Source of the DNA: Escherichia coli
GTDB taxonomy: Bacteria > Pseudomonadota > Gammaproteobacteria > Enterobacterales > Enterobacteriaceae
Assembly: GCF_009931435.1 (NCBI RefSeq)
Contig: NZ_CP043414.1
DNA: 64,000 nucleotides
Reading direction: 5' to 3' (one strand)
A program made the translations under genes and the position numbers. Position 1 is the stretch's first letter, and each line of letters starts with the position of its first letter. Below the pieces are notes generated by a model that saw only the letters and a list, made by a program, of their open reading frames with translations, was not told the origin of the DNA and made no database searches. Shown in pieces: positions 2,338-10,927 of the stretch.

Positions 2338-3285
<948 letters not shown>

Positions 3286-3294
3286 AGGGGTTGA

Positions 3295-6231
<2,937 letters not shown>

Positions 6232-6242
6232 GAGCGGCGGTT

Positions 6243-7133
6243 ATGATGTTTAAGCAATACCTGCAAGTAACGAAACCAGGCATCATCTTTGGCAACCTGA
6301 TCTCGGTGATTGGGGGATTCCTGCTGGCCTCAAAGGGCAGCATTGATTATCCCCTGTTTATCTACACGCTGGTTGGGGTGTCACTGGTTGTGGCGTCGGG
6401 TTGTGTGTTTAACAACTACATCGACAGGGATATCGACAGAAAGATGGAAAGGACGAAGAATCGGGTGCTGGTTAAGGGCCTGATCTCTCCTGCTGTCTCG
6501 CTGGTGTACGCCACCTTGCTGGGTATTGCTGGCTTTATGCTGCTGTGGTTTGGCGCGAATCCGCTGGCCTGCTGGCTGGGGGTGATGGGCTTTGTGGTTT
6601 ATGTCGGCGTCTACAGCCTGTACATGAAACGCCACTCGGTCTACGGCACGTTGATTGGTTCGCTCTCTGGCGCTGCGCCGCCGGTGATCGGCTACTGTGC
6701 GGTAACCGGCGAGTTCGATAGCGGCGCAGCGATCCTGCTGGCTATCTTCAGCCTGTGGCAGATGCCTCACTCTTATGCCATCGCAATTTTCCGCTTTAAG
6801 GATTATCAGGCGGCAAACATTCCGGTACTGCCAGTGGTGAAAGGCATTTCGGTAGCGAAAAACCACATTACGCTGTATATCATCGCCTTTGCCGTTGCCA
6901 CGCTGATGCTCTCTCTTGGCGGTTACGCTGGGTATAAATATCTGGTGGTCGCCGCGGCGGTTAGCGTCTGGTGGTTAGGTATGGCGCTGCGTGGTTATAA
7001 AGTTGCTGATGATCGAATCTGGGCACGCAAGCTGTTCGGCTTCTCGATCATCGCCATCACTGCCCTCTCGGTAATGATGTCCGTTGATTTTATGGTGCCG
7101 GACTCGCATACGCTGCTGGCTGCTGTGTGGTAA
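6243..7133 (+). CDS. cyoE: Haem O synthase (protohaem IX farnesyltransferase)
   Basis: Start moved to [19 protein letters not shown], giving 296 aa; UbiA-family membrane protein. Confidence 0.92.
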
Positions 7134-7147
7134 CACAACCTCTCTAT

Positions 7148-7176
7148 AAAAAAGGTGCTACGGCACCTTTTTTATT
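7148..7176 (+). terminator. Rho-independent terminator of the cyo operon
   Basis: aaaaaaggtgc-tacg-gcacctttttt hairpin followed by a T-run, just after the cyoE stop. Confidence 0.75.
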
Positions 7177-7187
7177 GTCTGAGAACA

Positions 7188-7219
7188 GAGATACGGCTAA
7201 TAACCGTATCTCTTGACAG
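7188..7219 (+). promoter_or_regulatory. 10-bp perfect inverted repeat abutting a TTGACA -35-like hexamer; candidate promoter/operator of the toxin-antitoxin operon
   Basis: agagatacgg-N7-ccgtatctct immediately followed by ttgaca, then a 17-nt spacer and taaatt; about 100 nt upstream of the antitoxin ATG. Confidence 0.35.
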
Positions 7220-7317
7220 AGTGAGTATATGCACATAAATTAATCATTCGGTTGATAGCCGTATTATGCATGAGATCGACTCCCTACGATTTCATTCAGT
7301 TAATCAAAGAGGTCATA

Positions 7318-7629
7318 ATGCCTGGAAAAACAGTCGCTCTACCCGATATCGATAAAACGCTGAAAAATGCGCGGGTTGAACTCAAAACCAGTCCCGACGC
7401 CAAAAACAAACTTCGTGAAGCTGCGCAAGCCGTTGGGGTAGATTTAAGCGCTTTTATTTTGAGCGCAGCTATGGAACGCGCCGAAAGTGTGCTTGATAAC
7501 CAACGTCGCCGTGAGCTTTCGAATCAAAGCTGGGAACTGATGAACCAACTCATCGCTGAACCTGCTCAACCGACGCTCGCCCTCAAGGCGTTAATGAAAA
7601 GGAAAAACAGCGATGGTCGACAAGCATGA
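7318..7629 (+). CDS. Type II antitoxin, ribbon-helix-helix DUF1778 family (TacA/AtaR-like)
   Basis: 103 aa from the ATG with RBS aaagagg; N-terminal pattern KNARVELKTSPDAKNKLREAAQAVGVDLSAFILSAAMERAESVL is typical of DUF1778 antitoxins; its stop overlaps the start of the GNAT gene. Confidence 0.75.
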   Translation: MPGKTVALPDIDKTLKNARVELKTSPDAKNKLREAAQAVGVDLSAFILSAAMERAESVLDNQRRRELSNQSWELMNQLIAEPAQPTLALKALMKRKNSDGRQA

Positions 7630-8155
7630 AGAGATTACTCTGCCCATAGTCCTCTCCTGTAATTATCAGTCTGATATTACTTATCCTGGGCAAAAACAGT
7701 TTGATTGCGGTAACCCTGTTATCGATAAATTTGTACGCGCATCGCTAAAGAAAAGTGTGCGTAATAGCGACTGTGCTGCTAAAGCACTTATTGACAGACA
7801 AAGTGGTGAACTGATTGGCATCTGTACTTTTACGGCATATTCGCTGGAAAAACAACGCGTTTCTGGCGTCCTTCAGGGTTCACAACCTTCAGAGATTGGT
7901 GTTGTCAGATTAGTCATGTTAGGGGTAGCGCGGAAATATCAAAAGCGGGGCTTTGGTCAGGACCTACTATGTGATTTTTTTGAACATGTAAAAATAATTC
8001 ACCGGGCATTACCAATTAAAGGGGTTTATCTTGATGCTGACCCTGCCGCCATTAACTTTTATACTCGTCTCGGCTTTGTTCAGCTTTCAGCGAGGCCCAA
8101 TGTTTTCGGTGCTGTACCGATGTTTTTAGCGATTCAGCATATTCTCGCGGCTTAG
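7613..8155 (+). CDS. GNAT-family acetyltransferase toxin (TacT/AtaT/ItaT-like, predicted aminoacyl-tRNA acetyltransferase)
   Basis: 180 aa; FDCG motif near the N-terminus and the acetyl-CoA motif RKYQKRGFGQDLL; 17-nt overlap with the upstream antitoxin. Confidence 0.75.
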   Translation: MVDKHEEITLPIVLSCNYQSDITYPGQKQFDCGNPVIDKFVRASLKKSVRNSDCAAKALIDRQSGELIGICTFTAYSLEKQRVSGVLQGSQPSEIGVVRLVMLGVARKYQKRGFGQDLLCDFFEHVKIIHRALPIKGVYLDADPAAINFYTRLGFVQLSARPNVFGAVPMFLAIQHILAA

Positions 8156-8210
8156 ATTATTATCGCCTCCGGCCATGGCAAGTTTTGCCTCAGCCGGGGA
8201 CTGAGCAGCG

Positions 8211-9146
8211 TTACCACTTTTGTTCAATTGCCCCCGCTTTCATCAGGTCCACATCCTTGCCTTTAATGGTTGCCGTTGCGGCAACCATTGTGGTCCTTAT
8301 TGCTGCACAAGATTTTCGTTCAAATTCCGGTTTATAAAGAATAAGCAACGAATTACTGGTAAATGAATCAAGCCGGTAATCTGTAAAGTTAATATCCAGT
8401 CGGTTTAAGCCGAAAGGTGCAAAGCCGACCGTTTGAATAGTTTCCTTACCTGACGGACTCTTGATGTTGTACGTAACACGAAGATTGGCCACTTCGCCTA
8501 ATTTATTGGTTTTGGCAAAGAGGCTATCCATGCAGGAAAAACCTTTATCTAAAAAATTATCCCGCATTCCAGAACGGGTAATCGTGATCACAGGTAACGT
8601 ATCGTCAACCGTTTTTCTGTCAATCATATCTTTTCGACAGGTGGCCATAAAGTCTTCCGGACCAGTATAAATGTGAACACCCTTATCAAGATATTCTTTC
8701 GCTTTACTACAATCCACCTCGACATACTGACCATTGGCGTACATCATGCCCAACCTGGACCATGCTAAATTCACACCGCGTTGCGTAGCCTGATTAAATA
8801 ACGCATACGCTTTGGCATAATCCACCCGCACCTGTTCACCTTCGTAGTAGATATCCCCCAGCGCTAACGGAGCTTCTTCATCACCTTGTTTAGCGGCTAA
8901 CTCGAACCATTTAATGGCTTCCTGAACGTTGGGTTTGGTATCGTAGCGGGGCTGATAATATTCCCAGCCTAACAGGCTTTGCGCGTCGACATCCCCCGAC
9001 TCAGCCATTTTATACAGTGTCCTTATCACATCGGGGGCAGGCTTTTCACTGTATATGCTGTCATACAATTCATGCGCTTTCTCGCTTGCCAGTGAACCTT
9101 GTGAGGCAATTAATAAAATAGCCAATAAACTCTTTTCATTTAACAT
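8211..9146 (-). CDS. Secreted Sel1-like repeat (TPR-like) protein with a C-terminal domain of unknown function
   Basis: 311 aa; N-terminal signal peptide (LLAILLIASQGSLAS); tandem Sel1-type repeats (AIKWFELAAKQGDEEA..LGDIYYEG...AYALFNQATQRG...LGMMYANG); roughly 170-aa C-terminal region without recognisable motifs. Confidence 0.7.
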   Translation of the reverse strand: MLNEKSLLAILLIASQGSLASEKAHELYDSIYSEKPAPDVIRTLYKMAESGDVDAQSLLGWEYYQPRYDTKPNVQEAIKWFELAAKQGDEEAPLALGDIYYEGEQVRVDYAKAYALFNQATQRGVNLAWSRLGMMYANGQYVEVDCSKAKEYLDKGVHIYTGPEDFMATCRKDMIDRKTVDDTLPVITITRSGMRDNFLDKGFSCMDSLFAKTNKLGEVANLRVTYNIKSPSGKETIQTVGFAPFGLNRLDINFTDYRLDSFTSNSLLILYKPEFERKSCAAIRTTMVAATATIKGKDVDLMKAGAIEQKW

Positions 9147-9562
9147 AAATAACCTTTATGCATCCATCACTATATTTTTCAATAAACCTAACCACCAAAC
9201 ATCCACTTCATGAATAAATACACAGCCATAACAACCTCAGGTAATAAGTAAACATTTAAGCTGAAGCAGAATAACCAGCACCTCCAACACCTCTATTTAT
9301 TGCGATAAAATAACACCATCCTTTAATAAAAAATCACACGCTCATCAACAAATCCGAAAATAATATCATTCGTGGCAGGATAAAATCAGGCGAGCTTTTC
9401 ATTTGTTATATTTAACGCACAAAGTATTAATGGCAAGAATACGAGGGAAGCGCATGCCTGACGTAAAAATCACGCTCTTATGTAATATTTACTCATTAAC
9501 ACTCTGTTTACCCAACATGCGCTCCGCACTACACTATGTGGGCAATTTTTTAAGAGGTGGTA

Positions 9563-10927
9563 ATGAACGATTATAAAATGACGCCAGGTGAGCGGCGCGC
9601 GACCTGGGGTTTAGGGACCGTATTTTCATTGCGCATGCTGGGCATGTTTATGGTACTGCCGGTTCTAACTACGTACGGTATGGCACTGCAAGGTGCCAGT
9701 GAAGCATTAATCGGTATTGCCATTGGTATTTATGGCCTGACTCAGGCCGTTTTTCAGATTCCGTTTGGCCTGCTCTCAGACCGTATTGGTCGCAAACCAT
9801 TAATTGTCGGCGGGCTGGCGGTGTTTGCTGCCGGTAGTGTTATCGCTGCGCTTTCCGACTCAATCTGGGGAATTATTCTGGGCCGGGCGTTACAAGGTTC
9901 TGGAGCGATTGCCGCTGCCGTTATGGCGCTACTTTCTGATCTCACGCGCGAACAAAACCGCACCAAAGCGATGGCGTTTATCGGCGTGAGTTTTGGCATT
10001 ACCTTCGCCATTGCGATGGTACTTGGCCCTATCATCACTCACAAACTTGGACTGCACGCGCTGTTCTGGATGATCGCTATTCTGGCAACGACCGGTATTG
10101 CGTTGACCATTTGGGTTGTGCCCAACAGCAGCACGCACGTACTTAATCGTGAGTCCGGAATGGTGAAAGGCAGTTTCAGCAAAGTGCTGGCAGAACCGCG
10201 ACTGCTGAAACTCAACTTCGGCATTATGTGTCTGCACATGCTGCTGATGTCGACGTTTGTTGCCCTGCCCGGACAGTTGGCTGATGCGGGGTTCCCGGCG
10301 GCTGAGCACTGGAAGGTCTATCTGGCGACGATGTTAATCGCCTTTGGCTCGGTTGTGCCTTTCATTATCTACGCGGAAGTTAAGCGCAAAATGAAGCAAG
10401 TCTTTGTCTTCTGCGTCGGGCTGATCGTGGTTGCGGAAATTGTGTTGTGGAACGCACAAACGCAGTTCTGGCAACTGGTGGTCGGCGTGCAGCTTTTCTT
10501 TGTGGCGTTTAATTTGATGGAAGCCCTCCTCCCCTCGCTTATCAGTAAAGAGTCGCCAGCCGGTTACAAAGGTACGGCGATGGGCGTTTACTCCACCAGC
10601 CAGTTTCTTGGCGTGGCCATTGGCGGTTCGCTGGGTGGCTGGATTGACGGCATGTTTGACGGTCAGGGCGTATTTCTCGCTGGCGCAATGCTGGCCGCTG
10701 TGTGGCTGGCTGTCGCCAGTACCATGAAAGAACCGCCGTATGTAAGCAGTTTGCGCATTGAAATCCCATCGGACATTGCCGCAAACGAGGCGTTAAAAGT
10801 GCGTTTGCTGGAAACTGCGGGTGTCAAAGAAGTGTTGATTGCAGAAGAAGAACATTCGGCTTACGTGAAAATCGACAGCAAAGTGACGAATCGCTTTGAA
10901 GTTGAACAGGCAATTCGTCAGGCATAA
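9563..10927 (+). CDS. yajR: MFS transporter YajR
   Basis: Start set at MNDYKMTPGE with RBS aagagg; about 454 aa; matches recalled YajR. Confidence 0.92.
   Translation: MNDYKMTPGERRATWGLGTVFSLRMLGMFMVLPVLTTYGMALQGASEALIGIAIGIYGLTQAVFQIPFGLLSDRIGRKPLIVGGLAVFAAGSVIAALSDSIWGIILGRALQGSGAIAAAVMALLSDLTREQNRTKAMAFIGVSFGITFAIAMVLGPIITHKLGLHALFWMIAILATTGIALTIWVVPNSSTHVLNRESGMVKGSFSKVLAEPRLLKLNFGIMCLHMLLMSTFVALPGQLADAGFPAAEHWKVYLATMLIAFGSVVPFIIYAEVKRKMKQVFVFCVGLIVVAEIVLWNAQTQFWQLVVGVQLFFVAFNLMEALLPSLISKESPAGYKGTAMGVYSTSQFLGVAIGGSLGGWIDGMFDGQGVFLAGAMLAAVWLAVASTMKEPPYVSSLRIEIPSDIAANEALKVRLLETAGVKEVLIAEEEHSAYVKIDSKVTNRFEVEQAIRQA

Follow-up and report, generated by a model that had tools for sequence, protein, structure and literature searches.

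The closest described system is ItaR-ItaT of Escherichia coli HS, in which expression of the toxin ItaT alone causes growth arrest and shuts down protein synthesis within minutes, a toxicity that is lost in the Y150A mutant and neutralised by co-expression of ItaR (PMC6125619). The two HS proteins co-purify as a tight complex, and this complex, not ItaR alone, represses a 172-bp upstream promoter fragment approximately 40-fold; repression of the operon is independent of acetyltransferase activity, and ItaT does not acetylate ItaR (PMC6125619). The HS toxin acetylates the alpha-amine of Ile-tRNAIle in vitro, with Val- and Met-tRNA also acetylated in vivo and in vitro, and the measured order of targets places Ile-tRNAIle first, followed by Val- and Met-tRNA (PMC6125619, PMC7367177, PMC9177977); the published specificity is not uniform, being confined to Ile in vitro and broader under overexpression in vivo. 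Because ribosome profiling with ItaT revealed pausing at Ile codons, more strongly at AUU and AUC than at AUA, the physiological hit is elongator Ile-tRNAIle, and overexpression of Pth counteracts the toxicity (PMC9177977). The crystal structure 7BYY represents HS ItaT carrying the engineered inactivating mutation G115D, and the roles of individual ItaT residues were assigned by Zhang et al. 2020, including a hydrophobic pocket of V36, I37, F40 and M102 which underlies the preference for Ile, Val and Met (PMC7367177). Our search of the literature from 2021 onward on ItaT and ItaR returned nothing relevant, with unrelated word matches only.

The window, a stretch of 64,000 nucleotides of E. coli DNA (contig NZ_CP043414.1), contains a co-oriented bicistron with the antitoxin gene first, within a small region whose features are collected in Table 1. 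The 103-aa and 180-aa reading frames share 17 nt (7613–7629), as a sequence-only reading of this stretch had described, and its suggestion of the translational coupling typical of type II toxin-antitoxin pairs is supported. Shine-Dalgarno-like sequences precede both start codons (AAAGAGG at 7306–7312 ahead of the itaR ATG and AAGGA at 7599–7603 ahead of the itaT ATG). RefSeq annotates the same two coding sequences in an E. coli genome of 99.5% identity, with proteins (WP_001353405.1 and WP_000227787.1) that match the window pair at every residue. A longer antitoxin reading frame of 125 aa with a TTG start (7252–7629) was considered and rejected, since its start would fall inside the candidate operator O2; the ATG at 7318 is also preferred by the agreement of the Shine-Dalgarno sequence, the RefSeq coding sequence and the published 11.4-kDa size.

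Table 1. Features of the itaRT region, in coordinates of the 64,000-nt window.
Feature	Coordinates	Strand	Description
cyoE terminator hairpin	7146–7175		
Low-GC insertion	7177..9484		approximately 2.3 kb, flanked by the cyoE terminator and the yajR promoter region; carries itaR, itaT and the Sel1-repeat gene
Candidate ItaR operator O1	7191..7209		ATACGGCTAATAACCGTAT; ATACGG-N7-CCGTAT, a perfect palindrome; 3 bp separate it from the downstream -35 hexamer
Sigma-70-type itaRT promoter	7213..7241	+	TTGACA-17 nt-TAAATT; 10/12 consensus matches
Candidate ItaR operator O2	7246..7264		ATTCGGTTGATAGCCGTAT; ATTCGG-N7-CCGTAT, one mismatch from a palindrome
itaR	7318..7629	+	ATG start; 103 aa, 11.4 kDa; ribbon-helix-helix (RHH) DNA-binding N-terminus and toxin-binding C-terminus
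itaT	7613..8155	+	ATG start; 180 aa, 20 kDa; GNAT toxin, aminoacyl-tRNA alpha-amine N-acetyltransferase
Sel1-repeat gene	8211..9146	-	311 aa; convergent with itaRT, in the same insertion

The profile searches that had been named as a check on the family assignments upheld both of them. Residues 19–96 of the 103-aa protein matched the Pfam family TacA1 (PF08681, E = 1.3e-17), which corresponds to the DUF1778-type RHH antitoxin of the earlier reading, and the 180-aa protein matched the GNAT families Acetyltransf_7, Acetyltransf_10 and Acetyltransf_1 (E values of 1.6e-07 to 8e-06, the lowest being that of Acetyltransf_7). The two motifs reported for the toxin were located at residues 30–33 (FDCG) and 107–119 (the acetyl-CoA loop RKYQKRGFGQDLL, which provides the Q/RxxGxG/A motif through Q110, G113 and G115). 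The GNAT fold, the acetyl-CoA loop and the catalytic tyrosine (Y150) are all present in ItaT, for which a 97%-identical protein has a solved structure. The antitoxin aligned end to end with KacA (5ZGN) and AtaR (6AJM), and by our mapping from that alignment R19 and K23 of ItaR correspond to the DNA-contact residues R8 and R12 of KacA. An Rfam search over 6900–9700 at E values up to 0.1 identified no RNA family.

In a sequence search of the PDB, the window toxin was identical to 7BYY at 175 of 180 residues (E = 1.3e-115), and the remaining best matches were likewise GNAT toxins, namely the KacT, AtaT and TacT entries. One of the differences from 7BYY, at residue 115, might be mistaken for natural variation in the active site; it was discarded as such, being the engineered inactivating G115D mutation (PMC7367177), and the window has the wild-type G115. 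Comparison with the HS chromosome gave 176/180 identical residues (97.8%) for wild-type ItaT, the substitutions from HS to the window being Q131R, A151T, T161R and A164V, and 100/103 (97.1%) for ItaR, where A6V, T7A and V11I all lie N-terminal to the RHH domain. The HS gene order, cyoE-itaR-itaT-convergent Sel1/TPR gene-yajR, is also that of the window, and the order cyoE-itaR-itaT-Sel1 gene-yajR was found in addition in the 99.5%-identical E. coli genome. Because both proteins are nearly identical to those of HS and the chromosomal site is the same, the pair is itaRT itself, an already characterised E. coli system, rather than a mere relative of TacT, AtaT and ItaT. The sequence-only reading had assigned the toxin to the tRNA-acetylating family, an assignment that the identity to HS ItaT supports, and had cited ItaT correctly as a family member, but it did not recognise that the locus itself is ItaT.

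The best explanation of the locus, and one in which we have high confidence, is that itaRT, a type II toxin-antitoxin operon of E. coli, is present here as an intact allele, with functions that would carry over from the HS allele. Toxicity, neutralisation, enzymology and autorepression belong to that allele, which is 98% identical, and are transferred to the window allele through near-identity, conserved residues and chromosomal position. All ItaT residues to which a role has been assigned are kept relative to HS: G115 of the acetyl-CoA loop and the general acid Y150; V36, I37, F40 and M102 of the aminoacyl-side-chain pocket; H125, I129, A132, L133, K136, N51 and D53 of the dimer interface; and the basic, tRNA-facing K39, R42, K46, K47, R50, K80 and R82. 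Among them are those for which mutagenesis has shown importance, namely G115, Y150, the four pocket residues, L133 and the basic patch. The same functional residues are conserved in the ItaT-like toxins of Citrobacter, Serratia and Rahnella (63–77% identical), whereas in that alignment the columns 131, 151, 161 and 164 vary. Relative to HS, dN/dS was 0.10 for itaT and 0.29 for itaR, with dS values (0.10 and 0.04, respectively) that do not exceed the 0.12 measured for the adjacent housekeeping gene cyoE. Low dN/dS combined with such dS values indicates purifying selection on what would be working genes.

Among the alternatives, an attenuated or inactive allele, in which at least one of Q131R, A151T, T161R and A164V weakens dimerisation or catalysis and leaves a harmless remnant, fares best and is nonetheless improbable. 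Residue 151 adjoins the catalytic Y150, and residue 131 lies in the dimer-interface helix between I129 and A132, both of which would be plausible places for such an effect. However, the two reading frames are full length, the antitoxin and promoter are kept intact, the dN/dS of itaT is 0.10, all four positions vary freely among homologues of four genera, an identical protein is present in RefSeq, and approximately 100 complete genomes carry the toxin-antitoxin region at 99% nucleotide identity or above. A quantitative change in activity through A151T or Q131R is unlikely, and a measurable difference in the activity of the minor allele R131/T151/R161/V164 is less likely than the operator reading given below. 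It is even harder to credit that an active toxin has shifted its aminoacyl-tRNA preference relative to HS ItaT: GNAT toxins of similar fold do hit different targets (PMC9177977) and A151T places a substitution close to the active site, but just four of the 180 residues differ, and the V36, I37, F40 and M102 pocket and the tRNA-facing basic residues are identical. Least credible, to the point of being negligible, is an ordinary small-molecule or protein acetyltransferase (RimI-like or antibiotic-modifying) with no toxin function, for which the generic RefSeq name and the uninformative NCBIfam results might speak (neither protein scored above a model's cut-off, the toxin giving weak, sub-threshold matches to RimI, MshD and PaiA and the antitoxin weak matches to MobA and RelB), since near-identity to an experimentally demonstrated tRNA-acetylating toxin in effect refutes it, the gene overlaps a DUF1778 antitoxin gene and the best PDB matches are all GNAT toxins.

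For the intact itaRT allele, the target can be inferred as well, because its toxin has the same substrate-pocket and catalytic residues as an ItaT with a measured target: the target is predicted to be mainly Ile-tRNAIle, with Val- and Met-tRNA secondary. The sequence-only reading, which considered the sequence insufficient to name the target tRNA, was in this respect overcautious. In the mechanism that we propose, a single promoter would drive a bicistronic itaR-itaT mRNA, from which itaR would be translated first and itaT by translational coupling through the 17-nt overlap. Aminoacyl-tRNAs acetylated by the toxin would be unusable in elongation, ribosomes would stall at Ile codons and growth would stop, unless ItaR, by binding ItaT tightly, neutralised the toxin. 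The ItaR-ItaT complex, and not ItaR alone, would in turn repress the operon, and we infer that it would do so through two TACGG-N7-CCGTA palindromes placed around the promoter.

The promoter lies within the region matching the 172-bp HS fragment for which promoter activity and its repression by ItaR-ItaT were reported (PMC6125619), and the 190 nt upstream of itaR, promoter included, showed only a few scattered differences from HS when aligned. Candidate operator O2 covers the expected transcription start, beginning 4 bp beyond the -10 hexamer, and its HS counterpart is a perfect palindrome; the motif of O1 occupies the corresponding position in HS. The 19-bp palindrome pattern occurred twice in the window against 0.05 occurrences expected by chance. 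Two exact TACGG-N7-CCGTA palindromes were found upstream of the antitoxin gene in each of the ItaT-like loci of Citrobacter freundii, Serratia marcescens and Rahnella, which are hosted by a phage-plasmid, a plasmid and a megaplasmid, respectively, and in all three a TTGACN-17-TAnATT promoter lies between the two palindromes, whose start-to-start spacing is 55 bp in Citrobacter, 61 bp in Serratia and 57 bp in Rahnella, compared with 55 bp in E. coli. The rest of the intergenic sequence is unrelated. The dual-palindrome promoter common to four genera is thus a phylogenetic footprint, and the two palindromes are probably ItaR operators. In the Rahnella sequence, an extra match with one mismatch was located approximately 1.3 kb upstream, inside another gene.

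In Klebsiella pneumoniae, a KacA4-KacT2 heterohexamer, in which there are two RHH dimers, uses R8 and R12 to bind a palindromic operator of 27 bp that spans the transcription start (PMC6698736). We consider it reasonably probable that the palindromes 55 bp apart in the window are ItaR operators that each take up one complex of ItaR4-ItaT2 type, and that this layout is a conserved hallmark of the ItaT clade, whether the locus is carried by a chromosome, a plasmid or a phage-plasmid. One ItaR-ItaT complex per palindrome would explain why the toxin is needed as co-repressor and why ItaR alone does not repress. Wilcox et al. 2018 mention neither palindromes nor operators (PMC6125619), and the layout described here is a modest addition to a known system in which the ItaR operators were previously undefined.

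Further observations were made on the ItaT-like pairs of other genera. The C. freundii pair (77% amino acid identity) was located at 2466–3546 of the locus extracted from plasmid NZ_CP145667.1, flanked by baseplate and tail genes in a circular element of 97 kb with the appearance of a phage-plasmid, and the Serratia copy adjoins repB. In Citrobacter and Serratia, approximately 185–246 nt separate the dual-palindrome promoter from the downstream start annotated for the antitoxin, and the long leader in between contains a short reading frame that is unrelated.

Strain BHUCD02 has an empty cyoE-yajR site, from which the window diverged right after the T-run of the cyoE terminator and to which it regained recognisable similarity at 9485. 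The boundaries of the insertion given in Table 1 are approximate; the insertion is absent, and the site empty, in K-12-like E. coli. The GC content of the insertion (43%, against 51% in the flanks) suggests a horizontal origin. No integrase gene was seen among the reading frames of the insertion, and no direct repeat was obvious at its two junction sequences. Among 5426 complete E. coli genomes, 1371 (about a quarter) carried the toxin-antitoxin region at a nucleotide identity of at least 95%, and 103 of these 1371 genomes were at least 99% identical to the window allele. The region is present twice in one E. coli genome, with one copy on a replicon labelled 'plasmid', and three E. coli 'plasmid' records of more than 1 Mb in the plasmid collection also carry the locus; those three records are probably mislabelled chromosomal sequence.

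The promoter-proximal sequence of yajR (approximately 9485–9555) differs strongly from its empty-site version, and dS relative to HS was 0.23 for yajR (9563–10927) and 0.12 for cyoE (6243–7133) with almost no amino acid change, values that are high within a species. These dS values suggest either a lineage remote from HS for the window or recombination in the surroundings of the insertion.

The third gene of the insertion encodes a 311-aa protein with a hydrophobic, signal-peptide-like N-terminus and three Pfam Sel1 repeats, which is matched by Sel1-repeat proteins of the PDB (for example 4BWR, E = 9e-45); its C-terminal half (approximately residues 160–311) had no Pfam match. The protein showed 84% amino acid identity with its HS allele (dS 0.42, dN/dS 0.20), compared with 97–98% for the toxin-antitoxin proteins. 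Across the whole 2.4 kb most E. coli carriers were only 80–90% identical, and for this reason two deep alleles of the Sel1-repeat gene appear to circulate. The gene adjoins itaRT in HS too and is absent beside the ItaT-like pairs of Citrobacter, Serratia and Rahnella. The possibility that it is a functional third component was set aside, as it travels with itaRT in E. coli and is missing beside the plasmid-borne pairs. In PADLOC, neither ItaR nor ItaT matched a defence system and the match of the Sel1 protein was negligible; a catalogued anti-phage role for ItaR-ItaT is not supported because the pair had no match.

The significance of the locus lies mainly in its correct annotation. RefSeq gives one protein only the label 'GNAT family N-acetyltransferase' and the other 'DUF1778 domain-containing protein' or 'TacA family antitoxin'; in fact these are the experimentally characterised ItaT and ItaR, and recognition of the pair as ItaRT gives the target (Ile-tRNAIle) and the mechanism directly. 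Small leads for those who work on GNAT toxins are the presence of the pair in approximately 25% of complete E. coli genomes, the defined low-GC insertion and the clade-wide dual-palindrome promoter.

Among known systems, the window locus corresponds to the published ItaR-ItaT, of which it is a minor allele; the system is already known, which makes the present identification correct but not new. It shares with the HS system (7BYY; Wilcox et al. 2018, PMC6125619; Zhang et al. 2020, PMC7367177) the 17-nt overlap, the protein lengths of 103 and 180 aa, the cyoE-yajR site, a nearly identical promoter region and all mutagenesis-tested residues, and differs from it by four substitutions in ItaT and three in ItaR, one mismatch in O2 and a divergent Sel1 allele (84% amino acid identity). 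KacA-KacT of K. pneumoniae (5ZGN/5XUN) and AtaR-AtaT of E. coli O157:H7 (6AJM/6GTS) likewise combine a DUF1778 RHH antitoxin with a GNAT toxin, have the FDCG and Q/RxxGxG motifs and the catalytic tyrosine, align with the antitoxin over its whole length including the DNA-contacting arginine, and are autoregulated via palindromic operators, for which the palindromes in the window are the candidate counterparts. They are nevertheless distant (phmmer E values of 1e-05 to 1e-06 for the toxin and 1e-08 to 1e-11 for the antitoxin), KacT and AtaT belong to different clades of the GNAT-toxin tree from ItaT (PMC9177977), and AtaT prefers Gly and Met aminoacyl-tRNAs whereas ItaT prefers Ile. TacA-TacT of Salmonella enterica (5FVJ/7AK8) is of the same family and chemistry as ItaRT, and Pth detoxifies both; TacT, however, is specific for Gly-tRNAGly in vivo and acetylates its own antitoxin, whereas ItaT leaves ItaR unacetylated (PMC6125619).
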